DNA from: an uncultured Gammaproteobacteria bacterium
Lineage (GTDB): Bacteria > Patescibacteriota > Patescibacteriia > UBA1558 > S5-K13
Assembly: GCA_964634645.1 (NCBI GenBank)
Contig: CAZWKI010000004.1
Location: 1 to 44,786, forward strand
DNA: 44,786 nucleotides
Direction: 5' to 3'
Part shown: positions 12,102 to 41,051 of the stretch, in pieces
Layout of the letters: each line of letters opens with the position of its first letter
Numbering within the stretch: the first letter of the stretch is position 1
Position numbers and translations under genes: made by a program
Notes under the pieces: generated by a model
The model's database searches: none
Seen by the model: the letters and a program-made list of their open reading frames with translations, nothing else
Told to the model about the DNA's origin: nothing

Positions 12102-12214
12102 ATTATTAGCTTTCAGCTTTTAGATTTCAGCTTTCAGCTCATTATTATTAAAACTTAGCTCTATTTTAGCAATATAATGTTGCAGTGTAAAGACATAAAC
12201 TATACAATATATAT

Positions 12215-13585
12215 ATGAAAAAAGACCAATTTAAAAATTTTGTATATGTTTTAATATTAGTAGCTGTAATTATTTTTGCTGTTTTTATAAGAATTCACAA
12301 TGTTTTAAAATATAATACTTATTGGGCTGATGATGGAGGAGCACACATTGATTATGTATATCAAATAGAAAAAAATCATAGACTGCCAGATTTTAAGACA
12401 AATTATTTGGCGTGGCATGAGCCAGGTTTTTATTTTTTGGGAGCTGCATGGAATATTTTTGGTTCTAAAATAGGATTTTATATTGGTCCAGACAATTATA
12501 ATTTTACAGAGCTTTTGAATGTAGGTATTTATTTAATTTTCCTTGCACTGGTTTGGATTTTTGCTTTTATTATATCTAATAAAAAAAAGTGGTTTGCACT
12601 TCTAATTACATTTCTTTTTTCAACACTATTTATAGGTGTAAAATTATCCAATTATATAAATAACGAATTGTTAAATCAGACAATGATATTGTTTTTAATA
12701 ATTTTATTTTTATATTGGAAATTACTAGACGACAAAAAATATTTAAAAGTTTTTTTGTTTTCAATTCTATTGGCAATTGCCTTTATTATAAAAATGACGG
12801 CATTTATAGCTCTTTTATCTGTGGCAATGATTTGGTTTATAAGTTTTTTATATAAAAGAAAAAAATATTTTATTTTTTATATTTTGATAGTTATATTTGT
12901 TTCTTTGGGGCTAAATGCTCCGTGGCTTATTCACAAAAAAAATACCTATGGAAGCGCTATCACAATAAATGCATTTGAAAAAGAGTCTCAGAGAATAATA
13001 AATAGTGATGGATGGAAATATTTTTTTAATTTTAATGACGATATATTTTTTGATAATCCATATTGGAGTGGCAATTTAAACTCATATTTTTCAATTCTTT
13101 TAAGTGATACTTTTGGAGATCATTATAATTTATTTAACAATCCGGATACTATATTTCAAGAAGAAAATAAAATTTTGCTTGATACAGGGAAGTATACAAA
13201 TCCTTATTTGTGGAATAAAATGATAAATGTAAATAGAATCGGATTATTTATATTTTTAATTTGGTTTTTTGGATTTCTATTGTTTTTAAAAGATTTATTT
13301 ATAAGGTTTTTTAAATATAAAAAAATAGATTTCTATGAATTGTTTTTATTGATTATACTTTTTGGGGGATGGGTTGCGCTTTTGTATAACAATTTAAAGT
13401 ATCCATATCTAGCAAGGGGAGTGCTTAAGGGTCACTTTATTTATTTTACATATCCGATTTTTGTGATTCTCTCTTATAAGACGCTTTATATACACATAAA
13501 AAATAAATTAATATTTTATTTAGTCTTAACTTTGCCAATAATTATTTATGTAATTATTGCGTGGCCAATTTTGTATGTTAAATAA
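12215..13585 (+). CDS. Polytopic GT-C type glycosyltransferase (ArnT/PMT, GT39/83-like)
   Basis: More than 10 predicted TM segments. An acidic DD motif (YWADDGGAH) sits in the first loop after TM1, as in ArnT/PMT-type enzymes. Confidence 0.45.
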   Translation: MKKDQFKNFVYVLILVAVIIFAVFIRIHNVLKYNTYWADDGGAHIDYVYQIEKNHRLPDFKTNYLAWHEPGFYFLGAAWNIFGSKIGFYIGPDNYNFTELLNVGIYLIFLALVWIFAFIISNKKKWFALLITFLFSTLFIGVKLSNYINNELLNQTMILFLIILFLYWKLLDDKKYLKVFLFSILLAIAFIIKMTAFIALLSVAMIWFISFLYKRKKYFIFYILIVIFVSLGLNAPWLIHKKNTYGSAITINAFEKESQRIINSDGWKYFFNFNDDIFFDNPYWSGNLNSYFSILLSDTFGDHYNLFNNPDTIFQEENKILLDTGKYTNPYLWNKMINVNRIGLFIFLIWFFGFLLFLKDLFIRFFKYKKIDFYELFLLIILFGGWVALLYNNLKYPYLARGVLKGHFIYFTYPIFVILSYKTLYIHIKNKLIFYLVLTLPIIIYVIIAWPILYVK

Positions 13586-15203
13586 TTTTTTTAAAAATTC
13601 TAAATATGGTATTTTTGTAATTTTCGTCATATTGTTTTGTTTACAAGTTATTTTACTGGGCCCTAAATTTGATTTTCCACTAAATGATGATTGGTCGCAT
13701 ACTCTTAGTATATATCATTTTAATTTTGATAAAGAGCTTTTTTACGCGCCATGGCTTTCTGCGTTTAATTATGTGCCAATATTTTTTGGTATTTTTTTGA
13801 CAGGTATTTTTGGTTTTTCTTTTTCTATTTTAAGGTTTGGAAATTTGATTATATCTTTTTCAACGGTATATTTATTTTTTGTATTTTTGAGATACAATAA
13901 AATTCCAAAACTACATGCTTTTTTGTTGTCACTTCTTTTGTGGTTTAATCCAATATTTTTTTATCTCTCATATACTTTCATGGGGGATCAAATAGCTCTT
14001 CTTCTAGTTCTTTTGTCAATTTTTTTATATAAACTAGCAATTGATAAGAGAAAATATAATTATATCTTTTTTGCAAGCATTGCGTCTGTTTTTGCAATAT
14101 TTACAAGGCAATTTGTAGCCATTTTGCCATTTGTTGCATTTGTATATTTCTTTTTTTCAAAACAATTCAACAAAAAAAGAACATTATTATCTTTTTTACC
14201 AAGCCTTTTTTTGTTAATAATTTTTTATTATATATCTTTGAAATTAAATTTTATTCCCGGAGAAGTTTCGGCTAGATTTGTTCCAAGAAGCATTTTGTTT
14301 AGAACCATTGTTTTTAATTTTGTAAATTATATTTTGCTATTATCGTTATTTTTTATTCCAATAACACTAAGCACTATAAAAAAAGACGTTATTAAAAAAA
14401 TGTTTTCAAAAAGAAATTTGATTTTAATTTTGCTGATGTCATTATTTTTTATTCTCACCGTATTTTATAAAAAATTTCAATTTCCTGGATTAGGAAATAT
14501 TATAAATCTATATGGAATAGGTCCAAATACTACTATAATGCAAGGGGATATTGATTTTAATATTAATTATGTATTTATATTTATTGTAAATATATTACTT
14601 GTAACACTCTCTATTTTTAATATATTTTATTTTTTTGAAAATAGAGAAATTATTTTAAATAAAGTAAAAAATGATTTTTTCTGGATCGTTTTTTTATTTT
14701 TATATCTATTTTTGATTTTGCCAATAATGTCTTTTGATAGATATTTGCTAATTTTTGTTCCATTCATATTGTTATTTTTTGGAATGATTATGAAAGAGAA
14801 AGGTTTTTCAAAAACAATATTAATACTATTAATATTTATACAGGCAACGCTTGTTTTTGTTGGAACAAGAGATTATTTATTTTGGAATAAAGCTAGATGG
14901 AATATTGCTAGAGAATTATCAAAAGTGGTAGAGACAAAAAATATTGAAGCTGGATATGAGTGGGATGGTTGGAATTTTTACAAAAAGCAATTATTTGAAG
15001 AATATTACCTTGGAAAGTTTACGCCAACTTGGGCGCCTTGGTATGTAAAACAAGTATCAAAGAATCATCAAATGGAATACATAGTTTCTTTTTCAGAGCT
15101 GGGTGGATATGAAGTAATAAAAAAACAAGAAACAAAAACAATTTTGTCTCCAATAGAACATATTTATTTAAATAAGGTTTCGCCAAATAGTATAAATCTT
15201 TAA
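13557..15203 (+). CDS. Second polytopic GT-C type glycosyltransferase (ArnT/PMT-like)
   Basis: Many TM segments, with PLNDDWSH in the first loop. It overlaps the upstream gene by 29 nt. The real start is probably MLNNFF at 13573. Confidence 0.45.
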   Translation: MRGQFCMLNNFFKNSKYGIFVIFVILFCLQVILLGPKFDFPLNDDWSHTLSIYHFNFDKELFYAPWLSAFNYVPIFFGIFLTGIFGFSFSILRFGNLIISFSTVYLFFVFLRYNKIPKLHAFLLSLLLWFNPIFFYLSYTFMGDQIALLLVLLSIFLYKLAIDKRKYNYIFFASIASVFAIFTRQFVAILPFVAFVYFFFSKQFNKKRTLLSFLPSLFLLIIFYYISLKLNFIPGEVSARFVPRSILFRTIVFNFVNYILLLSLFFIPITLSTIKKDVIKKMFSKRNLILILLMSLFFILTVFYKKFQFPGLGNIINLYGIGPNTTIMQGDIDFNINYVFIFIVNILLVTLSIFNIFYFFENREIILNKVKNDFFWIVFLFLYLFLILPIMSFDRYLLIFVPFILLFFGMIMKEKGFSKTILILLIFIQATLVFVGTRDYLFWNKARWNIARELSKVVETKNIEAGYEWDGWNFYKKQLFEEYYLGKFTPTWAPWYVKQVSKNHQMEYIVSFSELGGYEVIKKQETKTILSPIEHIYLNKVSPNSINL

Positions 15204-15346
15204 TTTGTTGAGCCCTAATTTTGCTATTTAATATTTGAAATTTAAATCAATATGTTGATTTTAAAGTTTAATATTAATGATTATTTATATTTTTGTAAAG
15301 TAAAAATAATGGTATAATACAATAGAGGTTATTAATATATAAAATC

Positions 15347-16045
15347 ATGTATTTATCAATAGTAATTCCTTTATATAATGAGGAAAAAAGAATAATTCCA
15401 ACAGTTCAAAAAACTCTTAATTATTTAAAGGAACAAAATTTTGATTTTGAATTAATTTTTGTTGATGATGGAAGTAAAGATAAGACAATAGATGTTTTGA
15501 GGGGTTATGAAAATGGAGAGAATATTAAAATTATAAAACACCAAATAAATAGAGGTAAGGGCGCTTCTGTAAAATCAGGAGTTCTTGCATCAAAAGGAGA
15601 AATTGTGCTTTTTTCTGATGCTGATTTGTCAACACCAATAGAGGAGTTGGATAAATTAATAAAAGAAATTGAAGAATACGATGTTGTTATTGGGTCTAGG
15701 TCTATTGATGAAAATTTATTACTCAAGAAACAACCAATTCATAGAATATTAATAGGTAAAATCGCTAAACTATTAATAAGGCTAGTTTTGAATATAAATT
15801 ACAAAGACACTCAGTGCGGATTTAAATTATTTAAACGAGATGTTGCTTTCAAGCTTTTTTATAAAATGAGAATGAAAAGGTGGAGCTTTGATTATGAATT
15901 ATTATTTTTGGCAAAGAGATTCAAGTTTAAAGTAAGGGAAGTTCCGGTTATATGGATAAATAATGAAGATTCTAGGGTAAATTCATTTATAGATCCAATA
16001 AAATCGTTTATTGATTTGATAAAAATAAGATTTAATAAATATTAA
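15347..16045 (+). CDS. GT2 polyprenyl-phosphate sugar synthase (dolichyl-phosphate beta-glucosyltransferase/Dpm1-like)
   Basis: Motifs LSIVIPLYNEE, VDDGSKD and DADLSTP (DxD), plus the QCGFKLF acceptor loop. Confidence 0.8.
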   Translation: MYLSIVIPLYNEEKRIIPTVQKTLNYLKEQNFDFELIFVDDGSKDKTIDVLRGYENGENIKIIKHQINRGKGASVKSGVLASKGEIVLFSDADLSTPIEELDKLIKEIEEYDVVIGSRSIDENLLLKKQPIHRILIGKIAKLLIRLVLNINYKDTQCGFKLFKRDVAFKLFYKMRMKRWSFDYELLFLAKRFKFKVREVPVIWINNEDSRVNSFIDPIKSFIDLIKIRFNKY

Positions 16046-16087
16046 AAGAAGTAAAGAGTTTATAAAATTTTTAGAATATTTTTATAA

Positions 16088-16933
16088 TTGGAACCAGAAA
16101 TGATTTTTTTTAAAAAAAAATTAATACTATTATCAATTTTTTGTGCATTATTAGTATTATTTATTTATTTTATTTCAAAAAGTAAAATATTTATAGAAAA
16201 TTTTGATTTATTAAGTGGTTCATTTATAAATAAAAAAAATTTAACAGAAATTGATAAAAATTTCAAATTTGACAATCTAATAGCTCACGCAGGAGGAGGA
16301 ATAAACGGATTAACATATACGAATTCCCTAGAGGCTCTAGAGGAAAATTATAAAAAAGGTTTTCGTTTTTTTGAAATAGACTTAGATATAAGTAGTGATG
16401 ATGTAATTATTTTATATCATTGCAGCGAATGTTATAAGAAACCAAGTTTAAAGGAGTTTAAATTGTTATTGTCAAAACAAAATCTAACAGGAATGACCTT
16501 GAATGATTTGCGTATTTGGATGTTTAATAAAAAAGACGCTTATATAATTATCAACGTGAAGACGCCCAATAAGAATATAGAAATTTTATCATTAATTAAG
16601 AATAGTTTTGTTGATATTAATAGACTAATACCCCAAGTATATGATTTTAGAGAATATTTTCACGTTAGAAAATTAGGATTTAACAAAATTATTATTACTC
16701 TGTATTTAAAAAATTATTCTGATAAAACAATTCTTAGATTTATAACAAATAATAGGGTTTCCGCCTTGACAATGCCAATCTCTAGATTCAAGAAAGATTT
16801 TATAAAAAAAATTAACGATTTAAATGTCCCAGTATTTTTACATACAATAAATGATTTAGATGTAGCTAATGATTTGAGTTTAATGGGCGTGTATGGGTTT
16901 TATACGGATTTTTTACAAATAGACAATAATTAA
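16088..16933 (+). CDS. Membrane-anchored glycerophosphodiester phosphodiesterase (GDPD/PI-PLC-like) family protein
   Basis: N-terminal TM segment. IAHAGGG...NSLEAL...GFRFFEIDL...ILYH resembles the GDPD HR...E.D...H pattern. Confidence 0.45.
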   Translation: MEPEMIFFKKKLILLSIFCALLVLFIYFISKSKIFIENFDLLSGSFINKKNLTEIDKNFKFDNLIAHAGGGINGLTYTNSLEALEENYKKGFRFFEIDLDISSDDVIILYHCSECYKKPSLKEFKLLLSKQNLTGMTLNDLRIWMFNKKDAYIIINVKTPNKNIEILSLIKNSFVDINRLIPQVYDFREYFHVRKLGFNKIIITLYLKNYSDKTILRFITNNRVSALTMPISRFKKDFIKKINDLNVPVFLHTINDLDVANDLSLMGVYGFYTDFLQIDNN

Positions 16934-16945
16934 TAATTAATAATT

Positions 16946-17980
16946 ATGAAATTAAAAAAAAATAATAAACACAACAAAGTTAAGTTTGATGACAATTATA
17001 ATGTTTTTAAAACATTTGAAAATTCTGACAAACAATTTAAGCAAGTATTTAAAGAGTTTAAAAATGTTAATTTAAAAAAAAGATTTAAGAGTATTAACAA
17101 AATTATTATTTGTGGAATGGGTGGTTCAGCGCTTGGTCCACATTTTGTAAGAAGTGTTTTTTCTAATAAAATTAATATTCCAATAATAATTTCAAATGAA
17201 TATAATTTACCAAAATGGGTTGATAAAAATACTTTAGTTGTAATTTCTAGTTTTTCGGGAACAACAGAAGAGCCTATAAATTGTTTTAAGCAAGCAAAAA
17301 AAAGAAATTTAAAAATTTTCATAATATGTACTGGTGGAGATTTATCAAAAATAGAATCAGAAAAATTTGTTTATAATCCAAAGTATAATTATGCAAAAAA
17401 TCCAAGATTTGCAATTGGATATTCTATAGCAAGTTTTATTGTTTTATTGAATAAATTGGGTTTTTTAAAATACAATACAAAAGATATTTTAAAACAAATC
17501 AAAATTTTTTCAAGAGGAAAATTACAATCTCAAAAAATTGCCAAAGAAATTACAAATAAAGCTCCAATTATTGTTTCGTCAGAACATTTAATTGGTAATG
17601 CTCACATTTTTCAAAATCAAATAAATGAAACTGGTAAAAATTTCGCATCATATTTTACAATTCCCGAAATTTGCCACCACCAATTAGAGGGTTTAACTTT
17701 TCCAAAAAATTTAGAAAAGAATTTAGTTTATGTTTTACTAAATTCAAAGCTATATATTAAAAGAAATCAAAAAAGATATGAGATAATAAAACAAATATTA
17801 AAGAAAAAGAAAATAAATTTTGTAGAAATTAAAACAACTGGTAATAATTTTTTTGAAGAAGCAATGTATATTCTTGGATTATCTTCTTATACTTCGTTTT
17901 ATCTTGCACATTTTAATAAAATTGATCCACAGCCAAACCCTTGGGTTGATTATTTAAAATTAAAAATGAATAATTCTTAA
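16946..17980 (+). CDS. Bifunctional phosphoglucose/phosphomannose isomerase (SIS domain)
   Basis: IIICGMGGSALGPHF and SFSGTTEE SIS-domain motifs. The length fits the PGI/PMI family. Confidence 0.7.
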   Translation: MKLKKNNKHNKVKFDDNYNVFKTFENSDKQFKQVFKEFKNVNLKKRFKSINKIIICGMGGSALGPHFVRSVFSNKINIPIIISNEYNLPKWVDKNTLVVISSFSGTTEEPINCFKQAKKRNLKIFIICTGGDLSKIESEKFVYNPKYNYAKNPRFAIGYSIASFIVLLNKLGFLKYNTKDILKQIKIFSRGKLQSQKIAKEITNKAPIIVSSEHLIGNAHIFQNQINETGKNFASYFTIPEICHHQLEGLTFPKNLEKNLVYVLLNSKLYIKRNQKRYEIIKQILKKKKINFVEIKTTGNNFFEEAMYILGLSSYTSFYLAHFNKIDPQPNPWVDYLKLKMNNS

Positions 17981-17981
17981 A

Positions 17982-19802
17982 ATGAAGTTAATGTTTAAAA
18001 ATATTTTCAGAATTATATGTTTTGTTTTTTTTATTTCGAGTATTTTGACTCTATTTATTTATGAGACCCTATCTTTACAGTTGGTTTTTCCAGTAAGCGG
18101 TCTCGAGTATTTTTTAAGGATTACCACAAGCTTCATTTTGTGTATAGTTCCAGCTATAGCTGTCTTGTATTTTAGAAGTAATTATAAGAATAAATATGTT
18201 TATTCTTTTTTGTTAACTATATTCTGCGTGTATTATTTTGTATTATTTCTTCTATTTATATATTTTAATACAACCACAAATTTTTTTGGAATTAATTTTT
18301 TGTTAGATAATTTTGAGGAGGCCATTTTTACTGTAAAATCAATTTTTGGAACAGCCAGGCTATTTTTTATACTATCTTTGTTTTTGTTTTTTGTAATCTC
18401 CTTTATTATAACTGCAAATTTTATAAAGCTTAGTGATTCTAAAATTCTTAACATTTTTAAAAAAATAATTGCTAATTTATTTATACTATTTATTATTTTT
18501 GCCAGCCTAGAATTTTATTTTCATTATGAAAAACCACTTTTATTAGATTTTATGGATAATATTTTTATAAACAAAGATGTTGTTTATCAAGAATATCAAA
18601 CAGATTATTCTACAATAGTTGACAGGTATTTCAATTTTAAATTAGAAGAGTTTAATTTAGAAAAAGTACAAGAAAATTTACCAGATATATATTTTATACA
18701 TTTAGAAAGTGTGAGCGGAGATTTTATGGATAAATACATTATTCCTAATTTTGATAAATACTCAAAAGAAAATGGTGTTGTTTTTGATAATTTTTATAGT
18801 AATTCAATACAGACCTTGAGGTCCCAAGAATCTATTTTATGTGCACTTCCACCGTCTTTGGGTGGATATTTTCAAAACAAATTTGATTCAAAAAGATTAC
18901 TGTGTATACCAAAAATTCTCTCTCATTATGGATATAAAACATTGTTTTTCAAAGACCATGATTTGAATTTTTCTAAGACAGGTAAATTTATGTCTGACAT
19001 TGGATTTGGTGAATTACACAGTTCGGATATAATGAAAGAAGGAGACCCATATTATAAATGGGGATTTAGAGAAGATGTTTTTTATAGGAGAGTTTATGAG
19101 TATCTAGAAAATTATAGAGAGCATAGGAAATTTGTTTATATAGCTATATCAGCTACAAATCACCTCCCATTTAACGTGCAAGAAGAATTTAATGATTTAC
19201 CCATTAAGCAGGTCAAAACTTTTACAGATAAATTAAAAAATACAACATATGTTCAGGATAAATATCTTAAGGTGATTTTAGATGAATTAAAAAATGATAA
19301 AAAAGAAAAATATATCTTTATTTTTGGCGACCACCCGTGGCCAACAAACTATCATAAGAATAATTATTTTAATGAAAAATTTGCGTATAGAGAAAATTTT
19401 CATACGGTTTTTTCTGTTTTACATTTTGGAGAAGGTGAAAGTCTTCTTAATTTTGGAGACAAAATAGAAGATTCTTATAACCAAATAGATTTTTTAAAAT
19501 CAATATTAGATCTGCTTAAAATAAAAAACTCAAACAAGTATTTGGGAAACTCCTTTTTTGAGGATTTATTAAAAGAAAATGAAACACAAACAATGCAAAA
19601 TTGTTCTATTTCTGTTCAACCATATTCAAATAGATATATAAGTCTTTTTTATGCAAATAAACACTATATTTATGATATAAAAAATAAAGAATCTTATTAC
19701 TTTGATATTTTAAAAAACAAATACGAAACACAACAACACAATATTTCTCAAAACGATTTTTTAGGCTTTTATAACAAGTGCAAAAAATTAATAGGGTATT
19801 AA
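17982..19802 (+). CDS. LtaS-like sulfatase/phosphoglycerol transferase family membrane protein
   Basis: Five or more N-terminal TM segments are followed by an extracytoplasmic alkaline-phosphatase-superfamily domain (IYFIHLESVSGDF, NSIQTLRSQES, SATNHLPF). Confidence 0.7.
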   Translation: MKLMFKNIFRIICFVFFISSILTLFIYETLSLQLVFPVSGLEYFLRITTSFILCIVPAIAVLYFRSNYKNKYVYSFLLTIFCVYYFVLFLLFIYFNTTTNFFGINFLLDNFEEAIFTVKSIFGTARLFFILSLFLFFVISFIITANFIKLSDSKILNIFKKIIANLFILFIIFASLEFYFHYEKPLLLDFMDNIFINKDVVYQEYQTDYSTIVDRYFNFKLEEFNLEKVQENLPDIYFIHLESVSGDFMDKYIIPNFDKYSKENGVVFDNFYSNSIQTLRSQESILCALPPSLGGYFQNKFDSKRLLCIPKILSHYGYKTLFFKDHDLNFSKTGKFMSDIGFGELHSSDIMKEGDPYYKWGFREDVFYRRVYEYLENYREHRKFVYIAISATNHLPFNVQEEFNDLPIKQVKTFTDKLKNTTYVQDKYLKVILDELKNDKKEKYIFIFGDHPWPTNYHKNNYFNEKFAYRENFHTVFSVLHFGEGESLLNFGDKIEDSYNQIDFLKSILDLLKIKNSNKYLGNSFFEDLLKENETQTMQNCSISVQPYSNRYISLFYANKHYIYDIKNKESYYFDILKNKYETQQHNISQNDFLGFYNKCKKLIGY

Positions 19803-19834: not shown

Positions 19835-20514
19835 ATGAAGTATATAATAATTCCAACATATAATGAGAAAGAAAATATAGAAAAATTAATAAAAGCTATT
19901 TTTGATCTAAAAATTTTGGATTTAAGGGTCCTTATTGTAGACGACAATTCGCCAGACAAGACAGGTGACATAGTAGATAATTTAAAAAAAGATTATCCGG
20001 TTGAGATTATAAAAAGATCCGGAAAATTAGGTCTTGGAAGCGCCTATGTAGAGGGATTTAAATACGCTATTAATAGGGGGGCAAACATCGTAATGGAAAT
20101 GGACGCAGATTTTTCTCATGATCCAAATGATATTCCAAGATTAATACGAGAAATAGAAGATGGATTTGATATGTCAATAGGCTCTCGCAAAATTAAAGGA
20201 GGAGGGGTTGTGGGTTGGAATTTTAAGAGAAAATTTATGTCTGATATGGCAATGAGCGCATCAAGACAAGGGATGTGACGGCTGGTTTTAGATGTTACAA
20301 CACAAAAATTTTTGAAAAAGTTGACTTAGATAAAATAAAATGCAATGGATATGCGTTTCAGGAGGAGCTTCTTTATTTTGTTGAAAAAAATGGTTTTAAA
20401 GTCAAAGAAGTACCCGTTATTTTTGTTGACAGAAAATTAGGAAAATCAAAGTTGGGTATAAAAGATATTTTAGGATTTTTTATTACTATGATTAGGCTAA
20501 GATTTAGAATATAA
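19835..20514 (+). pseudogene. Polyprenol monophosphomannose synthase (Dpm1-like GT2) broken by a frameshift near 20260-20278
   Basis: ORF 19835-20278 carries IIPTYNEKENI, VDDNSPD, MDADFSHDP and GSRKIKGGG. Homology (DVTAGFRCY...) continues in another frame in ORF 20275-20514. The segment between the WNFKRKF and DVTAGF blocks is shorter than I expect for this family. Confidence 0.7.
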
Positions 20515-20515: not shown

Positions 20516-20544
20516 AAAAAAGGCTCAATCAAGAGCCATTTTTA
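20516..20544. terminator. Bidirectional terminator between convergent gene blocks
   Basis: Sequence aaaaaggctc-aatcaa-gagccattttt, with stem 20522-20526/20533-20537 and flanking A and T runs. Confidence 0.5.
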
Positions 20545-20561: not shown

Positions 20562-21014
20562 TTATGTAGAGCTTGCTGCTGAGCCATACCCTCCTACACC
20601 ACCAATGAGACTAAAAACAAGAGATACAAGTATATATGAAAAAACAATTATAATAATACCAATAACAGCATTTTTTATTCTAGATCTAGCTTTTTTTATT
20701 TTTTCACTGTCACCGCCAGACATCATCCATTCGAAACCACTGATTATGATTAATATTAGAAATATTACACCTATAAGACCAAGTATTATTTTTATTATGT
20801 CGGATATTAGATTGCTGGGAGGAGCGTTTTTTAATCCAGCCCACGCAGCAAACGTATCCGTTTTAAATTCTCGAGAACTTGCATCTATATTAATAATTGG
20901 TTCTGGCAAATCTGGTTCTTCTAATTGTGCAAATACATTGAAATAATATAAAAAATTTATGATTATTAAAGAAAGTATAAGTATGGGTATTTTTTTTGTA
21001 TATTTTTGTGTCAT
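20562..21014 (-). CDS. VirB2/TrbC-like two-TM pilin paralogue 1
   Basis: Signal peptide ending VFA-Q. Conserved module ILGLIGVIFLILIIISGFEWMMSGGDSEKIKKARSRIKNAVIGIIIIVFSY. The + strand ORF 20548-20946 is a shadow. Confidence 0.65.
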   Translation of the reverse strand: MTQKYTKKIPILILSLIIINFLYYFNVFAQLEEPDLPEPIINIDASSREFKTDTFAAWAGLKNAPPSNLISDIIKIILGLIGVIFLILIIISGFEWMMSGGDSEKIKKARSRIKNAVIGIIIIVFSYILVSLVFSLIGGVGGYGSAASST

Positions 21015-21028
21015 ATATTTTTATTAAA

Positions 21029-21445
21029 TTATTGACTGCTATACTTAAATATATTTTCAATAAATACTACCAGCGTATAAGAAAAAACAACTATTGCAAG
21101 TCCAAAAATAGCATTTTTTATCCTTGCCTTTGATTTTTTTACCGTATCTTCATTTCCCCCAGCAGTCATCCATTGAATACCAGAAACTATTATTAAAATT
21201 AGGAATAATATCCCCAGAAAAGAGATAATTACTTGTACAATATTCGCTATTGTGTTAAATAGTGTATTTGGTCCAGTAGTTTCCGAAAAACGAGCTGCTT
21301 TTGCGGCCTCGTCTGTCTTTCCCTGAATTAAATTTTGTAGGGACTGTGTTGTCGTTTCTTCAGCATGAATATTTATTTTGACCATGGGAATTAGAATAAA
21401 CCCACAAACCATTAGAAAATAAATTATTTTTTTTACCTTATTCAT
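21029..21445 (-). CDS. VirB2/TrbC-like two-TM pilin paralogue 2
   Basis: Signal peptide ending IHA-E. Module FLGILFLILIIVSGIQWMTAGGNEDTVKKSKARIKNAIFGLAI. Confidence 0.65.
   Translation of the reverse strand: MNKVKKIIYFLMVCGFILIPMVKINIHAEETTTQSLQNLIQGKTDEAAKAARFSETTGPNTLFNTIANIVQVIISFLGILFLILIIVSGIQWMTAGGNEDTVKKSKARIKNAIFGLAIVVFSYTLVVFIENIFKYSSQ
21092..21211. repeat. 120-bp perfect direct repeat, copy A (C-terminal module of pilin 2)
   Basis: By my base-by-base comparison, the sequence tattgcaagtcc...aggaataatat is identical to 21550-21669. Confidence 0.85.
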
Positions 21446-21486
21446 ATTTTTAATTATTGATTTTACGATTTTAAATATTTTTATAT

Positions 21487-22095
21487 TTAGATCTGACTTT
21501 CAAAAAATAAGTCTATTATAAAGTATGTTATAGCGTATGCAAAAATAGTTATTGCAAGTCCAAAAATAGCATTTTTTATCCTTGCCTTTGATTTTTTTAC
21601 CGTATCTTCATTTCCCCCAGCAGTCATCCATTGAATACCAGAAACTATTATTAAAATTAGGAATAATATACCTATAAAGGATAATATAGTTTTTATTATA
21701 TTACCAATTACTGTTGGTAAATCAACGTTTCCAGATCCATAACCTATTCCTCCCGCAACAGCGCCCATTATAGACCCAGCATTATTGATACCCGTAGGGA
21801 TAATATTGCCCCCACCACCTCCGTTTCCTGTTGGTGGACAGCATCTAGTATACTCATATTGATCGCTATCTGGAGCACCTGAAGCACCTAAACATTTGTT
21901 TGATACACAGCCTTGACAGTTAGTTTCTTTACAAAATCTACAGCTCCAGCCCTCAGTGCCAGGTGCTTGAGGTGTTCCGCAGGTATTTTCCGCGCCAAAA
22001 CAAATTGTCGCAAAACCAAACAAGAGAAAAAGATTTGTTATAATAATTATTTTTTTAAAAAAATATTTTTTGTTTTTTGTATTTAGACCCACCAT
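21487..22095 (-). CDS. VirB2/TrbC-like pilin paralogue 3 with an N-terminal 8-Cys module and a Gly-rich spacer
   Basis: After the signal peptide comes the 8-Cys segment CGTPQAPGTEGWSCRFCKETNCQGCVSNKCLG...RCCPP. This is followed by GNGGGGGN and a module identical to that of paralogue 2. Confidence 0.65.
   Translation of the reverse strand: MVGLNTKNKKYFFKKIIIITNLFLLFGFATICFGAENTCGTPQAPGTEGWSCRFCKETNCQGCVSNKCLGASGAPDSDQYEYTRCCPPTGNGGGGGNIIPTGINNAGSIMGAVAGGIGYGSGNVDLPTVIGNIIKTILSFIGILFLILIIVSGIQWMTAGGNEDTVKKSKARIKNAIFGLAITIFAYAITYFIIDLFFESQI
21550..21669. repeat. 120-bp perfect direct repeat, copy B (C-terminal module of pilin 3)
   Basis: Identical to 21092-21211. Confidence 0.85.
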
Positions 22096-22112
22096 AAATT
22101 TATTTATAATAT

Positions 22113-22487
22113 TTATATTAGTTGATTTACCAAAAGAGGAAATATTGTATTTGCTATTATGTAGGCACCAAGAGTAATTACAAGTCCATAAACAGCATTT
22201 TTTATTCTATCCCTTGCTTTTTTCACGGTATCCTCATTTCCTCCAGCAGTCATCCATTGAAAGCCAGCAATAATTGTAAGAACAAGAAACAAAACACCTA
22301 TTAGACCAAGAATATATTGAATTATTATAACTATGATTATTAAAATATGTGGGCTTTCGCCATATCCAAGATCACCAGCAGTTTGTGTAAGGTCAGATGT
22401 CACATAACTCGGAACTTGCGCTTGAGCAATTGATAAAAACAAAAAAGATAATAAGCTAAAAATTAATATTTTTTTTATGGATTTCAT
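22113..22487 (-). CDS. VirB2/TrbC-like two-TM pilin paralogue 4
   Basis: Signal peptide ending AQA-Q. Module ILGLIGVLFLVLTIIAGFQWMTAGGNEDTVKKARDRIKNAVYGL. Confidence 0.65.
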   Translation of the reverse strand: MKSIKKILIFSLLSFLFLSIAQAQVPSYVTSDLTQTAGDLGYGESPHILIIIVIIIQYILGLIGVLFLVLTIIAGFQWMTAGGNEDTVKKARDRIKNAVYGLVITLGAYIIANTIFPLLVNQLI

Positions 22488-22493
22488 TAAAGT

Positions 22494-22853
22494 TTAAAAA
22501 GATATAAGTTCAAACACTGTATTTGCTATTATATAGGCGCCTGCAATTATAATAATGCCTATTATCGAATTGAATATTTGTTCTTTTGCCTTTTTTATGA
22601 CTTCTGTATTTCCCCCAGCAGTCATCCATTTTATTCCTGCAAAAATGATTTGTATTAAAAATATTACACCAACAAAAGATAGAACATAGCCTACCACGCG
22701 TACTATTATAACGTCAATATTCGATCCACCAGTTGTTAGGTTAGCCTTTTTAGCCGTTTCATCTAAACCATAATTATCAGCAAAAGCAATATGAGAATTG
22801 ATTAATATGATAGATATTGACAAAATAATTAATGCAAAAATTATTTTTTTCAT
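22494..22853 (-). CDS. VirB2/TrbC-like two-TM pilin paralogue 5
   Basis: Signal peptide ending AFA-D. Module VLSFVGVIFLIQIIFAGIKWMTAGGNTEVIKKAKEQIFNSIIG. Confidence 0.65.
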   Translation of the reverse strand: MKKIIFALIILSISIILINSHIAFADNYGLDETAKKANLTTGGSNIDVIIVRVVGYVLSFVGVIFLIQIIFAGIKWMTAGGNTEVIKKAKEQIFNSIIGIIIIAGAYIIANTVFELISF

Positions 22854-22947
22854 AATGTTTTATTTTTGAAGAGATAAATCGTGTAAATAATTCAGACTAT
22901 TACCCCCCACAAAATTGTGAGGAGTAAGGTGTCTAACATATTTACTA

Positions 22948-23355
22948 TTATATTGTGTCGGTTACTCCCTCTCCTGTTGCAGCGCCAAATATTAAATCAA
23001 CTACAAATTGTTGTATGATGTATGCGAAAAGAACTATTATCATACCGACAATTCCAGCTCCCATTAATTTTTTTGCAGCACCAATTTTTTCACTATCACC
23101 ACCTGATGTCATCCATTTAAACCCACCTATAATAATTATAAGTAAAGCAACAACACCCAACAATGCTAATATAAGTCTTATTACATTTGAAATTGCGCCA
23201 CCAGGAGTTACTTCGTTATTTAACCCAGCTTCATTTGCAATTACATCTACATTGAATTCCTCTAAGTTTATTTGAGCAAATGCTCCTGAAACAATGAAGC
23301 AAGAAACAATTGCTACTAGCGCAAAGGAAACAATTTTTGTTAGTTTTTTTGACAT
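22948..23355 (-). CDS. VirB2/TrbC-like two-TM pilin paralogue 6
   Basis: Signal peptide ending AFA-Q. Module ILALLGVVALLIIIIGGFKWMTSGGDSEKIGAAKKLMGAGIVG. Confidence 0.6.
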   Translation of the reverse strand: MSKKLTKIVSFALVAIVSCFIVSGAFAQINLEEFNVDVIANEAGLNNEVTPGGAISNVIRLILALLGVVALLIIIIGGFKWMTSGGDSEKIGAAKKLMGAGIVGMIIVLFAYIIQQFVVDLIFGAATGEGVTDTI

Positions 23356-23536
23356 TTAGTTATTTGTCCTTTCTTTTCCCATTATTGGGAAATTAATTAT
23401 TTTTTATATTAATTATATTAATTAAAGTTAAATAATATAAACATTAAAATTTTATATTTTAATAATTATGTCTAAACTTATAATATAATCCTATAATAAT
23501 TATACAATTTAATTGAAAAATATAAAAGAGGGCATG

Positions 23537-23857
23537 TTATTTTGCTAATGTTGTAAATATCTGATTTAAAATAGTGTAGGCTGAAAAAATTAAGACAAGC
23601 CCCAACACAGCCCAAATTATTGTTTGTTTTCCATTTTTTATTTTTTCTGAATTACCACCAGATGTGAGCCACAAAAATCCTCCATAAATAAACATTAGCA
23701 AAGCAATTGAACCGACAACTCCCAAAAGCGCTTTTATTACAATTCCTATTAAATCGGGAACATTGTTTACTTTAAGTGGATTTGTTATTCCATCAGCACT
23801 TATTACATTGGGTACAAGTAAAAACAAATATATTGATACAAGAATTTTTTTTATCAT
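23537..23857 (-). CDS. VirB2/TrbC-like two-TM pilin paralogue 7
   Basis: Signal peptide ending ISA-D. Module LLGVVGSIALLMFIYGGFLWLTSGGNSEKIKNGKQTIIWAVLG. Confidence 0.6.
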   Translation of the reverse strand: MIKKILVSIYLFLLVPNVISADGITNPLKVNNVPDLIGIVIKALLGVVGSIALLMFIYGGFLWLTSGGNSEKIKNGKQTIIWAVLGLVLIFSAYTILNQIFTTLAK

Positions 23858-23893
23858 ATTATTTGTATAGCAATTAAAATGGTAATTTATTGA

Positions 23894-24604
23894 TTATAAT
23901 TTATAAGAATCATTTAACAATGTTTCATTGTATACTGTACCTTTTAATAGTGTTTTTCTTACAAAATCTACTATTAAAAAAGCACATAAGCATATTATTA
24001 TTCCTATTATTGTCTGAACCATCATTGTTTTAGCGCTAGATATTTGGCTAGAATTACCATGAGAGGTAAGCATTTTTATTCCCGCTATTATGAAAAATAA
24101 AAGCGCAATACTTCCTATGAGCCCCATCAAATATTTAGCAATAATTATAGCTACATTTACTATGTCTGTCACGCTACAGTTTCCATCTTTAATACAGCTA
24201 ACAGGTTGATTAAATAATGTACCCGCACTAGTACCCGTACTATCATCTTCATCTTCTGCATTTGTAGTAGTAGGACAACATTTATTTGTTGTTCCGCTAC
24301 CACAAAGACCAGAAACACAACCCCATTTCGCACAATTAGAGCCACATTCTTTGCAAGAGTATGTTGGATATGAATGTTGACATTTAGCATTGGGTGGGCA
24401 ACATTGTTTAGTTGCTCCTCCACTACAAAGATTAGGGAAACAATCCCACGCTTCACAATTAGAGCCACATTCTGTGCAAAAATAATTTGGATGCTCATTT
24501 GAGCAAGTAGAGCCTTGTACATCAAAACAAAAACTAAACGAGACAATAAACAAAAGTAATGATGTACAAAAAATTATAATCTTTTTTAATTTAGAGAATT
24601 TCAT
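23894..24604 (-). CDS. VirB2/TrbC-like pilin paralogue 8 with a tandem-duplicated 8-Cys module
   Basis: Two consecutive 8-Cys units are present (CSNEHPNYFCTECGSNCEAWDCFPNLCSGGATKQCCP and CQHSYPTYSCKECGSNCAKWGCVSGLCGSGTTNKCCP). A divergent module follows: LMGLIGSIALLFFIIAGIKMLTSHGNSSQISSAK. Confidence 0.6.
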   Translation of the reverse strand: MKFSKLKKIIIFCTSLLLFIVSFSFCFDVQGSTCSNEHPNYFCTECGSNCEAWDCFPNLCSGGATKQCCPPNAKCQHSYPTYSCKECGSNCAKWGCVSGLCGSGTTNKCCPTTTNAEDEDDSTGTSAGTLFNQPVSCIKDGNCSVTDIVNVAIIIAKYLMGLIGSIALLFFIIAGIKMLTSHGNSSQISSAKTMMVQTIIGIIICLCAFLIVDFVRKTLLKGTVYNETLLNDSYKL

Positions 24605-26210: not shown

Positions 26211-27074
26211 TTATTTTAAAATTTGTTTTAAGTATTTTTTGAAATTATTTGCTAGGTCTGGTCTATCTAATGCGTATTCAACGGTTGCTTGTAAATAATT
26301 CAAAGGATCCCCAGTTGTGAGCCATCTTCCATTTTCTACCTCTTTTATATATGCTTTTCCACCATCTCTAATATATTGTTCTACTGCATCGACAAGCCAC
26401 AATTCATTTCCTTTTCCAAGTTTTTGATTTTCCAGAATTTTTAATATTTCTGGGACTATAATAAACCTTCCGAAATCCGCCCATTGTGACGGAGCCTCTT
26501 GTAAGCTTGGTTTTTCTATTATTGTTTCTACTTCATTTTTTGTGCCCTTTTTTATTTTTGCTATTCCATATTTTATAACATCTTTTTTTGGAACTTTTTG
26601 TACACCAAATATTACGCCAGGATTTTTTTGATATTCATTTATTAATTGTTTTGTAAAAGAAATTTTTGATTTTACTAGATCATCTCCAAAAGCATATACG
26701 AATGCTTCATTTCCAATAACAGCTTTCGCACAAAGCGCTGGTGTCCCGTTTCCATATGGACCTTTTTGTCTTATATAAATAAAATTTGCCAGTTCAGAAA
26801 TTTTTTTCATTTGTTTTAATTTGTCTAATTTTCCACTCTTTTCAAGACTATATTCTAACTCAAAATTTCTATCAAAATGATCCTCAAGTGTTTTTTTGTC
26901 CCATCTTGTTACTAGCACTATATCTGTTATTCCAGCTTCAACCATTTCTTCTACAACATATTGAACAATTGGTTTGTCTACTATTGGAAGCATTTCTTTT
27001 GGTTGAGACTTTGTTGCTGGTAAAAACCTAGTTCCACTTCCAGCCACAGCTATAACTGCTTTTGTAATTTTCAT
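26211..27074 (-). CDS. galU: UTP--glucose-1-phosphate uridylyltransferase
   Basis: The AVIAVAGSGTRFLPATKSQPKEMLPIVDKP N-terminal signature is diagnostic. Confidence 0.9.
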   Translation of the reverse strand: MKITKAVIAVAGSGTRFLPATKSQPKEMLPIVDKPIVQYVVEEMVEAGITDIVLVTRWDKKTLEDHFDRNFELEYSLEKSGKLDKLKQMKKISELANFIYIRQKGPYGNGTPALCAKAVIGNEAFVYAFGDDLVKSKISFTKQLINEYQKNPGVIFGVQKVPKKDVIKYGIAKIKKGTKNEVETIIEKPSLQEAPSQWADFGRFIIVPEILKILENQKLGKGNELWLVDAVEQYIRDGGKAYIKEVENGRWLTTGDPLNYLQATVEYALDRPDLANNFKKYLKQILK

Positions 27075-29416: not shown

Positions 29417-30427
29417 ATGGATAATATGATTATCAAAAGAAAAGACTTAATGAAAAAAATAGAGATTGGAAGGCCACATCTGGTACTACTTGGTGCTGGT
29501 GCAAGTAGAGCAGCATTTCCAAACGGAGATAAAAATGGAATTCAATTACCCCTAATGAATGATCTGTTTAATATTATTGATTTAGAATTTTTAATAGAAA
29601 AATATAACATCGACGTTCAAAATGATAATTTTGAAGAGTTCTTTAGTAATTTATATGAGCGTGAAGATAATAAAATAATTGCTAATGAGGTAGAAAAGGA
29701 AATTTTTAATTTTTTTAAAAAATTGGAGCTGCCAGAAGAACCAACTATATATGATTATTTAGTATTATCTCTAAGGAAAAAAGATGTTATAGCGACTTTT
29801 AATTGGGATCCATTTTTATGGTTAGCTGCTAGAAGAAATTATGGCGTTGTTGATTTGCCGCACCTAATTTTTTTACATGGGAATGTAGTGGTTGGATATT
29901 GCCATAATTGTAAAATAAAGGGCCAAATCAATTATGAATGCCCACAATGTGGTCAATTATATACCCCATCTCATCTTTTGTATCCGGTTAAGAAAAAAGA
30001 CTATGACTCTGATCCGGCTATCGCTGGAGAGTGGACTATGATAAAAGAATATATGAAACATGCATATATATTTTCAATCTTTGGTTATAGTGCTCCAACA
30101 ACAGATATAGAAGCAATGAATATTTTTAAAACTGCATGGGGAGGAACGGGCAATAGAAATTTTGAACAGATAGAATTTATCCATAAACCCAATAGTAGCG
30201 AAGATGATGTTATTAATCCCTGGAAAGATTTTATTCATTCTCATCATTATGATATTACAGATGATTTCTTTAAATCTATAATGAGTAGATATCCAAGAAG
30301 AACTTGCGATGCTTTTTGGGCAGCCACTATGGAAGTAAGATTCGTTGAAAATAATTACCCACCAAAAAATGTTGATTTAATAACTTTGCAAAATTGGTTT
30401 AGAAAATTTAAAGAATACGAGAATTAA
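29417..30427 (+). CDS. SIR2-family (sirtuin-like) NAD-binding protein with Cys4 zinc ribbon
   Basis: The motifs LLGAGASRAAF (GAGxS), ATFNWDP (TxNxD-like), FLHGN (catalytic His) and CHNC-x14-CPQC (Zn ribbon) are followed by IFGYSAPTTD. Their order and spacing match the sirtuin/SIR2_2 fold. Confidence 0.7.
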   Translation: MDNMIIKRKDLMKKIEIGRPHLVLLGAGASRAAFPNGDKNGIQLPLMNDLFNIIDLEFLIEKYNIDVQNDNFEEFFSNLYEREDNKIIANEVEKEIFNFFKKLELPEEPTIYDYLVLSLRKKDVIATFNWDPFLWLAARRNYGVVDLPHLIFLHGNVVVGYCHNCKIKGQINYECPQCGQLYTPSHLLYPVKKKDYDSDPAIAGEWTMIKEYMKHAYIFSIFGYSAPTTDIEAMNIFKTAWGGTGNRNFEQIEFIHKPNSSEDDVINPWKDFIHSHHYDITDDFFKSIMSRYPRRTCDAFWAATMEVRFVENNYPPKNVDLITLQNWFRKFKEYEN

Positions 30428-31000
30428 ATGATTAATAATGACATAAAATATAAATTTTTTTTGATTAGTCATCATGATAATAAACCCCATTTAATTTTTA
30501 CTATTAAGTTTGATAAAGATAATGTTTATTTTATTAATTCGGGATTCATAAAAAATTTTAAAACTAAGATTAGTTATCATACGCCTAGACTACCTAGCAA
30601 CAAATCTCAAGTACATTTCAAAGTAAACGATAGACGTATTAATGACGCTGATTTATGTTGTCCAGCGAATGAAATAAAGGGTGTGCGATATTTTGGTGGT
30701 AGTGGTACCCCATTAGATCAATTGATAAACTTACCAATTTTTAAAAAAGAAAAGAGGGGCGAAAAATGTTTTATCTTTGATAGTAGAAAATTACGCATGA
30801 GTCATTTATCAAGCATACAATGGTCATGGTTCTTTGTAGAGCCAGATCAAGAAGAATCATTATATAAACACCCTATTATAGATAATGGTGACAGTGAATT
30901 TTCAGAAAGTATGCATATTCAACTTATCAAAGAAACCATCCCCTGGGTTGGTATAGAATATATTAGAATAAGAGAAGAAAACCCCATATGGTATAAGTAA
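30428..31000 (+). CDS. Hypothetical protein translationally coupled to the SIR2-like gene
   Basis: The ATG directly abuts the SIR2 stop codon (TAAATG at 30425-30430). The protein is 190 aa with no TM segment and no motif I recognise. The pair shares the terminator at 31035-31066. Confidence 0.5.
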   Translation: MINNDIKYKFFLISHHDNKPHLIFTIKFDKDNVYFINSGFIKNFKTKISYHTPRLPSNKSQVHFKVNDRRINDADLCCPANEIKGVRYFGGSGTPLDQLINLPIFKKEKRGEKCFIFDSRKLRMSHLSSIQWSWFFVEPDQEESLYKHPIIDNGDSEFSESMHIQLIKETIPWVGIEYIRIREENPIWYK

Positions 31001-31034
31001 TTATTTTGTCGAGGCATTGTTATAATTTAAAATT

Positions 31035-31066
31035 TAAAACTCTCGGAAATGAGTTTTTTTTGTTTT
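31035..31066 (+). terminator. Intrinsic terminator closing the SIR2 two-gene operon
   Basis: Stem aaaactc(31036-31042)/gagtttt(31051-31057) followed by a long T-run. Confidence 0.55.
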
Positions 31067-31132
31067 AATCTTAAATTGATTTTTGAGTTTAAATGTGAGA
31101 TTATTAAAATATAAAGATTTGAATTTAAAATA

Positions 31133-31549
31133 ATGGAAAAACGGATCACAGAAGATTTTGTAAAAAATGCAATAATAAAATGGCTTTCTGCAAATGGTTG
31201 GGGATATTTTCATTTTGGTGGTTTACATGACCATGGAGTTGATATCAAGGCGAAGCGTCATGGATATTCTAGATATTTTTTTATAGAAACAAAGGGAGAT
31301 GGAAGTAGGAGAGAAATGAATGAAAATTATTTTATTTATTCTCTTGGCCAGATTATTACAAGAATTAAAGATTCTAAAACAACAAGAAATTATTATGCTC
31401 TTGGATTACCAGAAAGTATATCAAAAATAGCAATTAGAAGAATTCCATGGCAAGTATCAAAAAAACTTTTACTTTTTATTCTTTCAGTAAATAAACAAGG
31501 TAAGGTTCAACAATATAGTTGGCAAGATCTAAAAAATTTACAAGAATAG
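31133..31549 (+). CDS. Small PD-(D/E)xK-fold nuclease-like protein
   Basis: HGVDIKAKRHGYSRYFFIETKG gives a D...ExK arrangement after an alpha-helical N-terminus, like Hjc, Mrr and YraN-type restriction-endonuclease folds. Confidence 0.45.
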   Translation: MEKRITEDFVKNAIIKWLSANGWGYFHFGGLHDHGVDIKAKRHGYSRYFFIETKGDGSRREMNENYFIYSLGQIITRIKDSKTTRNYYALGLPESISKIAIRRIPWQVSKKLLLFILSVNKQGKVQQYSWQDLKNLQE

Positions 31550-31576
31550 ATTAGTTTTTTATAAATATTATATATA

Positions 31577-33205: not shown

Positions 33206-33209
33206 AAAT

Positions 33210-41049: not shown

Positions 41050-41051
41050 AT

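Follow-up and report, generated by a model that had tools for sequence, protein, structure and literature searches.

The DNA analysed here, called the window throughout, is an entire contig of 44,786 nucleotides (nt) (CAZWKI010000004.1), and our subject within it is a tandem array of genes for small proteins resembling the VirB2 and TrbC pilins of type IV secretion systems (T4SSs), together with the lipoprotein gene that precedes it. Positions 20562–24604 hold exactly eight consecutive open reading frames (ORFs) on the − strand, encoding proteins of 106–236 amino acids (aa); the ORF listing of the window matches exactly the coordinates given by an earlier model from the letters alone (the sequence-only reading). 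We number the genes W1 to W8 in the order of transcription. Intergenic gaps are mostly 3–41 nt, with two larger ones of 94 and 181 nt. W1 starts 3 nt past the end of a gene for a solute-binding protein (SBP), and galU lies 106 nt farther upstream than the SBP gene. This link of the array to an SBP lipoprotein and to galU, also pointed out by the sequence-only reading, is real and is conserved in related loci. The features are as follows, with profile scores in bits:

26211–27074, − strand: galU-like gene for a UTP-glucose-1-phosphate uridylyltransferase (PF00483), in the same position in the related loci L002, L007 and L008
24608–26104, − strand: SBP_bac_1 lipoprotein gene, 498 aa (PF01547, 77 bits, above threshold)
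23894–24604, − strand: W1, pilin 1, 236 aa, first gene after the SBP gene (PF18895, 33.2 bits); signal peptide, N-terminal part with two 8-Cys modules, C-x5-C loop (SCIKDGNCSVTD) and hairpin
24275–24478, − strand: the two tandem 8-Cys modules of W1, CxxCGxxCxxxxCxxxxCxGGxxxxCC (residues 43–69 and 84–110)
23537–23857, − strand: W2, pilin 2, 106 aa, the shortest and most canonical (PF18895, 47.6 bits; PF04956 TrbC, 33.0 bits)
22948–23355, − strand: W3, pilin 3, 135 aa (PF18895, 32.8 bits)
22494–22853, − strand: W4, pilin 4, 119 aa (PF18895, 31.0 bits)
22113–22487, − strand: W5, pilin 5, 124 aa (PF18895, 35.3 bits)
21487–22095, − strand: W6, pilin 6, 202 aa, N-terminal part rich in Cys and Gly (PF18895, 32.5 bits)
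21029–21445, − strand: W7, pilin 7, 138 aa (PF18895, 38.9 bits)
20562–21014, − strand: W8, pilin 8, 150 aa, last gene of the array (PF18895, 43.8 bits; PF04956, 32.1 bits; NF045849, 40.6 bits)
20522–20537, both strands: GC-rich hairpin with a T-run, from the terminator scan

The hairpin at 20522–20537 is likely the shared terminator of the array and of a convergent family 2 glycosyltransferase (GT2) gene, and the same scan returned no − strand terminator-like site within the array. A promoter scan was uninformative (45 matches, against 41 ± 6.5 in shuffled sequence) and was not used.

Protein plan and family assignment

The sequence-only reading had proposed that the eight proteins share a signal peptide, a variable segment and a conserved hairpin, and all eight follow this plan. 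Each has a basic N-terminus and a hydrophobic stretch, followed in a Kyte-Doolittle scan by two more strongly hydrophobic 19-mers. Cleavage sites of the proposed AxA type (xA|x), read by eye, are present in seven of the eight (VISA|D, AFA|Q, AFA|D, AQA|Q, FGA|E, IHA|E and VFA|Q). In the alignment of the paralogues (A1), the motif W(M/L)T(A/S)GGN..KK corresponds to the loop joining the two helices, a short and basic loop (GGN-E-x-x-KK-x-K) of which W1 carries the most divergent form (KMLTSHGN); the segment from the signal peptide to helix 1 could not be aligned across the paralogues.

Profile searches place these proteins among T4SS pilins. The gathering cut-offs are 26.6 bits for PF18895 (T4SS_pilin) and 27.9 bits for PF04956 (TrbC/VirB2), and the cut-off of NCBIfam model NF045849 (Mbov_0395 pilin-like conjugal transfer protein) is 40. 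PF18895 scored above its cut-off in all eight proteins (31.0–47.6 bits) and PF04956 in two (W2 and W8), while three others reached 10–21 bits with the latter family and three had no match; W8 also passed NF045849, a cut-off that the other seven approach from below. Not counting the proteins of the window, we further retrieved 34 homologues from databases (33 with PF18895) and, in related loci, 411 ORFs positive for a pilin hidden Markov model (HMM). These profile matches support the assignment of all eight genes to pilins of the PF18895/TrbC-VirB2 superfamily, and bear out the VirB2/TrbC layout that the sequence-only reading had preferred to that of a type IV pilus prepilin. The G-FTLIE-type leader, which it had also reported missing, is absent from all eight proteins by regular expression, and N_methyl (PF07963) gave no match; the lack of a class III leader and of this match speaks against a type IV pilus prepilin.

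An AlphaFold2 model of W1, built on an alignment of 40 homologues, has as its core a helical hairpin (helices 145–180 and 185–223) with a predicted local distance difference test (pLDDT) score of ~85–93, and residues 27–126 score below 50. A helical hairpin is a simple fold whose Foldseek matches are non-specific, which leaves room for the proposal that the proteins are not pilins at all, i.e. that they are holins, other small two-transmembrane-segment (TM) proteins or spurious ORFs in AT-rich DNA. We find this scarcely credible: eight out of eight proteins exceed a curated Pfam threshold, and the 34 homologues and 411 HMM-positive ORFs lie in conserved synteny. Holins, the example of another family raised by the sequence-only reading, gave no match in Pfam at E-values up to 1 or in NCBIfam, and no competing family emerged.

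The Cys-rich inserts described earlier are also present, with 22 Cys residues in W1 and 9 in W6. Those of W1 include its two 8-Cys modules, matched by regular expression and encoded by a 97-nt direct repeat of 75% identity. Among 1.8 billion representative proteins the module has only three weak relatives, two of them pilins. Single copies are present in two further pilins and in a protein that is not a pilin (P0277, P0278 and P0279), and the position of the module is N-terminal in W1, P0278 and P0279. The W1-type protein P0009 has instead, by eye, a looser Cys-rich segment (CxxC, CC) at its C-terminal end, which does not match the regular expression. An N-terminal position in W1 and a C-terminal one in P0009 would fit a topology in which both termini lie on the same exposed face.

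Positional orthology and gene conversion

Using SBP homologues as anchors, we found two syntenic loci, L007 (contig of 952 kb; JGI Ga0233431_1000003 / Ga0257124_1000001) and L008 (contig of 86 kb), whose SBPs are 49 and 52% identical to that of the window, respectively. The order Gmk-RluD, GalU-SBP-eight pilins, GT2-PGI ... YebC-RuvC is common to the window and both loci, and the array numbers eight genes in all three genomes. In all-against-all local alignments, W1 to W8 were the best matches of the genes at the same position in seven of eight cases, for L007 and for L008 alike. The sole ambiguous position is that of W5, where tied scores leave the one-to-one orthologue undecided. The positional orthologues are L8_1 and L7_1 for W1, L8_2 and L7_2 for W2, L8_3 for W3 (pairwise score 381), L8_4 and L7_4 for W4, L8_6 and L7_6 for W6, L8_7 and L7_7 for W7, and L8_8 and L7_8 for W8.

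Between positional orthologues the 70-residue core is 47–71% identical, and the mature N-terminal part only 8–31%, with length differences of up to six-fold. The same pattern holds at closer range, where W6 and its close relative P0279 have cores of 89% identity but N-terminal parts of 36%. At the ~50% identity of the orthologues, synonymous sites are saturated. Because orthologues can be paired position by position and their cores are conserved in distant genomes, the alignments indicate that the eight positions are old, distinct and maintained paralogues, whose putatively exposed ends evolve freely.

Superimposed on this pattern is an exchange between two neighbouring genes, located as follows:

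21550–21669, − strand: conversion tract in W6, 120 nt identical to 21092–21211; it takes in TM1, the loop and the beginning of TM2
21092–21211, − strand: conversion tract in W7, partner of 21550–21669

The tract spans 40 codons with zero synonymous differences and has barely alignable flanks; other pairs of paralogues use the same codon at only 27–64% of positions with an identical amino acid. It is the cause of the 74% identity between the W6 and W7 cores. An independent manure metagenome (run X2) yielded the tract as a separate 120-nt unitig at ~2× the depth of its flanks, so that it is not an artefact of the window's assembly. The locus is present at high depth in X2 (~90×) and also in runs X1 and X3, the source run being SRR8925769. 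The sequence-only reading had called recent gene conversion here, and on this evidence the W6–W7 event is real. It had also counted the conversion among the signs of diversifying selection, which the tract does not bear out: it lies in TM1, the loop and the first part of TM2, and conversion there homogenises the part that would have to fit the polymer, and does not diversify the exposed part.

What the eight genes are for can be viewed in two ways. They may form a variation repertoire of interchangeable major pilins, alternated or shuffled by conversion so as to adapt the pilus surface to different hosts or to evade recognition by host or phage; the sequence-only reading had proposed diversifying selection on a surface-exposed filament or adhesin repertoire. 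Speculation about such a variation repertoire is also offered in a survey of Patescibacteria genomes by Quinonero-Coronel et al. (2025, Microb Genom; PMC12102498). The hypervariability of the N-terminal parts, even between relatives as close as W6 and P0279, and the reality of the W6/W7 conversion are in keeping with it, as are six single-nucleotide polymorphisms between metagenomes that fall in pilin genes and none in the SBP gene (run X2), a small sample. What argues against a repertoire is that orthology holds position by position at ~50% SBP identity, with eight genes in all three syntenic genomes; that the genes are separated mostly by short gaps, with neither a terminator inside the array nor an arrangement of invertible segments or silent cassettes; and that the conversion tract covers the conserved core. 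Of the earlier proposal, the hypervariable exposed parts and the conversion stand; the array is not, however, a repertoire with fast turnover. We consider a repertoire rather unlikely. Since all eight genes are conserved position by position, they more likely encode co-expressed, non-redundant subunits, some of them major pilins and others minor or decorating ones, than variants that can replace one another.

The lipoprotein gene beside the array

The SBP has an invariant Cys30 in a lipobox-type setting after a hydrophobic segment. Its AlphaFold2 model (pLDDT 87) shows a bilobed MalE-like fold with an extra β-hairpin at residues 125–154, and the top PDB matches in Foldseek are oligosaccharide-binding SBPs (E ~1e-20, target-normalised TM-score ~0.75). 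In fold, PF01547 membership and lipoprotein-type N-terminus it resembles the MalE-like SBPs of ATP-binding cassette (ABC) importers, such as C. thermocellum CbpB (7x0l) and a sophoro-oligosaccharide SBP (5yse). It differs from them in its extra β-hairpin, in always being followed by a pilin gene, and in its surroundings, which lack an ABC permease or ATPase near the SBP gene in the window and any recurrent permease/ATPase cluster in 85 related loci; a transporter may be encoded elsewhere in the genome.

We scanned the GTDB species representatives with the SBP alignment and obtained 80 loci (323 relatives in all). They belong to metagenome-assembled genomes named Falkow-, Magasanik-, Uhr-, Komeili-, Kerfeld-, Yanofsky-, Portnoy-, Moranii- and Andersenbacteria and, in some cases, Saccharibacteria (lineages such as L073 and L079). 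Identity of the window's SBP to the species representatives is 39% at most, and the protein itself was found on only one other contig, of 4.5 kb. Downstream genes were detected with a pilin HMM built in this analysis: a same-strand pilin ORF directly follows the SBP gene in 81 of the 81 related loci with downstream sequence, at a median gap of 8 nt and often with overlapping stop and start codons, and a Pfam scan confirmed PF18895 in 76 of 82 first downstream genes. Upstream of the SBP gene the content varies (GalU in 37 of 85 loci, ComM in 18, SMC in 15 and GyrA in 11). By these counts the SBP gene is a conserved partner of the array across many lineages of the Candidate Phyla Radiation (CPR). 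The pairing is not universal, as two Microgenomatia arrays and that of Southlakia epibionticum have no SBP gene.

The first genes of the related arrays have features of their own. A C-x5-C-x3-D loop, tried as a signature of the first-position pilin, proved enriched at that position (32 of 82, compared with 29 of 338) without being diagnostic of it. In some loci (L040 11460–17237, L052, L061, L066, L069 and L073), hairpin-bearing proteins of 300–700 aa are encoded by the first or early array genes, and some first downstream genes carry fused SLT transglycosylase, Ig-like, He_PIG, CarboxypepD_reg, SdrD_B or PG_binding_1 domains; to judge from their domain content, enzymatic or adhesin-like domains appear to be displayed on VirB2-like anchors.

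One census locus places the pair beside a secretion system. In L084 (Candidatus Moraniibacteriota JBBINP010000001.1), a single strand carries in order the SBP gene, two pilin genes, PrgI/VirB3, a 226-aa ORF, VirB4, a 219-aa ORF, ComM and an Rpf-like gene (9863–19238), followed by KsgA. The VirB4 matches P-loop_TraG, AAA_10 and TraC_F_IV, and the Rpf-like lytic enzyme carries G5/DPBB. This arrangement ties the SBP–pilin pair physically to a T4SS core.

That link bears on a further account, in which the SBP and the two-helix proteins form a new surface or uptake complex independent of any T4SS, their likeness to VirB2 reflecting shared ancestry of the hairpin. Such a complex would be in line with the strict conservation of the SBP–pilin pair, whose genes often overlap, with the absence of a recurrent ABC permease or ATPase beside the SBP gene, and with the lack of VirB4 within tens of kb of the array in the window or in L007 and L008. 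Yet in L084 the pair lies directly before PrgI/VirB3 and VirB4 on the same strand, the S. epibionticum array sits inside a T4SS cluster with both being essential, and VirB4 is found in ~80% of CPR assemblies. We judge a T4SS-independent apparatus improbable.

The SBP-like lipoprotein most likely functions together with the pilins on the outer face of the membrane, where it could bind a ligand or host glycan or take part in pilin handling. A bolder proposal is that it is a dedicated, previously unreported component of VirB2 pili in ABY1, Paceibacteria and some Saccharimonadia, acting as a host-glycan receptor, as an extracytoplasmic pilin-handling factor or as the capture step of a T4SS-derived import. 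We advance this tentatively, as a possibility kept open by the retention of the pair in 81 of 81 loci amid reshuffled surroundings, by the lack of an ABC partner nearby and by the PrgI–VirB4 link in L084. The pairing is unmentioned in the text and supplements of the survey (PMC12102498) and in our full-text searches, which cover the searchable literature and are no proof of novelty.

One speculation is that products of the neighbouring GalU, GT2 and polytopic GT-C-like genes glycosylate the exposed pilin segments. At ~21 loci (L095 10434–12798; L013, L014, L017, L022, L024–L026, L031, L043, L046, L051, L054, L062, L078 and L079 among them), a GT2 gene and/or a gene for a ~530-aa protein lies within the array or convergent to it. 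The ~530-aa protein has 10–12 TM segments and no Pfam family, and no relative of it was detectable in the window. The recurrence of these genes, together with upstream GalU, hints at an extracytoplasmic glycosylation linked to pilins, which remains speculation because the ~530-aa protein has neither a Pfam match nor a relative in the window.

Secretion machinery, known arrays and overall reading

We read the locus, with a probability of roughly 0.8, as an array of VirB2-like pilin genes on the chromosome of a member of the Patescibacteria (CPR), whose pilins would be polymerised by a T4SS encoded elsewhere in the genome. The bacterium probably belongs to the ABY1/Paceibacteria part of the phylum. 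As to its patescibacterial origin, all SBP and pilin homologues with lineage-level source names carry CPR names (some are labelled only '[bacterium]'), the locus is syntenic with the 952-kb contig, whose length is typical of CPR genomes, and the window has ~29% GC and a reduced set of housekeeping genes. Records for L011, L012, L014 and ~30 other census loci are titled 'uncultured Gammaproteobacteria bacterium' (with one Acutalibacteraceae and one Ignavibacteria) despite their CPR-specific SBP–pilin locus, and these titles appear to be placeholders, or mistaken organism names, in the original entries.

Several results weigh against this reading. A Pfam scan of 46 further ORFs from across the 44.8 kb (the 79-aa ORF at 20275–20514 and 45 of those of at least 90 aa; the ones omitted overlap longer ORFs) returned no VirB4, VirB6, VirD4, VirB11, PrgI or relaxase family. 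In the closest large contig, that of L007, neither VirB4 nor PrgI or VirB6 was found when the surroundings of the orthologous array were followed for ~21 kb upstream and 10 kb downstream. We infer the T4SS of this organism from its prevalence in the phylum (~80%) and from L084. No RNA run containing the stretch was found. In Foldseek searches of the PDB, the W1 model gave non-specific helical hairpins, with a best E-value of 2.7; third place, at E=4, went to a conjugation pilus from an archaeon (8dfu). A profile search of PDB sequences returned no VirB2 or other pilin. As a bare hairpin is too simple a query, the PDB searches are uninformative, and we used them neither for nor against the VirB2 assignment.

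The sequence-only reading had noted that VirB4, VirB6, VirD4 and relaxase genes are missing within 20 kb, which the scan extends to the whole window. It had treated their absence as unusual, and the survey tells otherwise: VirB4 is present in 2417 of 3035 Patescibacteria assemblies, and a pilin gene lies near virB4 in only 1135 of the 1948 assemblies that have both (PMC12102498). Walking outward on the 952-kb contig by exact-match scan and neighbouring protein, we met KsgA, a TSP3-repeat protein and a giant protein of 3189 aa. In the two syntenic genomes (L091 10001–20807 and L092 10001–20756), a TSP3-repeat membrane protein is encoded ~10 kb beyond the array region and is followed by proteins of ~3000–3200 aa and >970 aa, probably giant surface proteins; the window's contig ends, or its island interrupts, before such a region.

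Alternatively, the array might be part of a normal conjugation locus, or of what is left of an integrative conjugative element (ICE), with the other genes lying just outside the window. VirB2/TrbC pilins are classically conjugation genes, and the window does hold an island with serine recombinases. The array, however, is set among housekeeping genes in an order conserved over a long evolutionary distance; the island is more than 4.8 kb away behind a tRNA-Lys gene and has neither T4SS nor relaxase genes; and few Patescibacteria encode a relaxase (109 relaxases, in 103 of 3035 genomes; PMC12102498). A conjugation locus is thus very improbable. The ORFs at 29417–33713 were considered as hidden T4SS or phage parts and rejected as T4SS parts, having no Pfam or PHROG match, no TM segments and no Walker A motif; one of them, 31577–33205 (542 aa), the one ORF scanned, has no IMG/VR relative, and no pilins were found on viral contigs.

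For the array as we read it, we postulate the following mechanism. By analogy with VirB2 and TraA pilins, the Sec pathway would export the pilins and their signal peptides would be cut off, leaving them in the membrane as hairpins with the basic loop toward the cytoplasm. A VirB4-driven T4SS of monoderm type (MPF-FATA-derived), encoded elsewhere in the genome, would then extract them into a pilus or tube. In this structure the loop would line the lumen, and the variable N-terminal (and C-terminal) segments and disulfide-rich modules would lie outside and meet the host surface. The eight subunits would be co-assembled as major plus minor or decorating pilins, and their freely evolving exposed ends fit contact with variable host surfaces.

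Arrays of this kind are already known in Patescibacteria. The survey, which used PF18895 and PF04956, found 441 VirB2 arrays of 2–11 genes in 383 assemblies among 3035 Patescibacteria genomes, with a mean within-array identity of 25% and a highest value of 54% (PMC12102498). Its arrays, like that of the window, are tandem, divergent PF18895/PF04956 pilins in CPR chromosomes, often away from virB4 and with no relaxase. Counting as an array two or more tandem pilin genes, or pilin genes separated by one non-pilin, the window has eight contiguous members. The 74% core identity of W6 and W7 exceeds the survey's paralogue maximum of 54%. The survey is centred on virB4, and its text and supplements do not deal with the SBP gene, galU, positional orthology or gene conversion.

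The best-studied counterpart is that of S. epibionticum ML1 (SEML1_0014–0019), six tandem pilins that are essential by transposon sequencing (Wang et al. 2023, Cell, PMC10633639). As in the window, the pilins of this monoderm epibiont are in tandem, all six are annotated as PF18895 (Table S2), and structure is conserved while sequence is divergent. Its array differs in lying inside a T4SS cluster, divergent from a VirB6-like gene and with no SBP gene upstream, whereas the window has eight genes, an SBP gene and galU, and no machinery nearby. Reviews describe the role of the patescibacterial T4SS as unknown (PMC11665869, PMC12857230).

Farther afield, VirB2 of the Agrobacterium T-pilus, TrbC of RP4 and TraA of F share with the window pilins the signal peptide, the two hydrophobic helices and the short basic loop. 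They are single-copy genes within the T4SS operons of diderms, and the long, variable, Cys-rich N-terminal extensions of the window are atypical of them. Tandem divergent VirB2 copies are also found in Bartonella and Anaplasma phagocytophilum, and the virB2 paralogues of Bartonella and Anaplasma have been proposed to vary the exposed pilus surface. Those are diderm intracellular pathogens with arrays in or beside virB loci, and the positional orthology of the window argues for a fixed set. W8 resembles the Mycoplasma ICE proteins Mbov_0395 and MMCAP2_0565 (NF045849) in being a hairpin protein of VirB2 type whose organism is wall-less or monoderm; these are encoded by a single gene on a mobile element, and the other seven window pilins score under the NF045849 cut-off.

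The rest of the window contains housekeeping genes (TsaE, TsaD, Tig, NrdD/G, RuvC, YebC, PGI, RluD and Gmk, by Pfam) and envelope or glycan genes (two GT2, one of PMT_2 type, one more polytopic GT-C-like, GDPD, an LtaS-like sulfatase and GalU). The convergent GT2 gene (19835–20514, + strand; polyprenyl-phosphate sugar synthase-like) is split into ORFs of 147 and 79 aa, and its L008 orthologue is intact and 75–77% identical. Since contigs of two independent runs (X1 and X2) carry 19 extra nt (AATAATTTTGAATTTGAAA) after 20265, with which the gene reads in one frame again, the split must stem from faulty assembly or from a deletion allele in the minority, and the gene is not a fixed pseudogene. 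Two adjacent polytopic proteins, encoded on the + strand at 12215–13585 and 13557–15203, have 9 and 12 TM-like segments; the latter matches PMT_2, and the former has no Pfam family and a WADDGG motif in its first loop. From this they are probably a GT-C-type glycosyltransferase pair in an envelope-glycan cluster flanking the array. A 189-aa ORF at 10191–10760 (+ strand) has a sub-threshold match to IS200-like Y1 transposases (19.9 against 23 bits), and the interval 9406–10190, after a tRNA-Gly gene, has no ORF of at least 90 aa. The integrated island runs from 29417 to at least 44507, behind the tRNA-Lys gene at 29209 (a tRNA-Arg gene is at 28897). It holds five ORFs with no Pfam or PHROG match, two DNA methylases, a ParB–methylase fusion, a DUF3644 protein, large serine recombinases at 35669–36988 and 42870–44507 (the latter in a stretch of 45% GC), and at 40165–41675 a SMODS and Cap15 pair resembling a cyclic-oligonucleotide-based anti-phage signalling system (CBASS).

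With the kind of array already known from work published in 2023–2025, what our analysis adds is the positional orthology, the core-directed conversion and the SBP partner. Tens of kb may separate an array from the nearest T4SS ATPase, so that surveys centred on virB4 miss much of the context of arrays. A position-fixed set with conserved cores and free ends points to a hetero-oligomeric or decorated filament rather than to simple antigenic switching. Few systems have been shown to be indispensable to a cultivated Patescibacterium living as an epibiont, and the T4SS with its pilin array is one of them. The SBP lipoprotein, whose gene precedes the array, and often overlaps it, in a large part of the phylum, is a concrete candidate for the component in contact with host or substrate.

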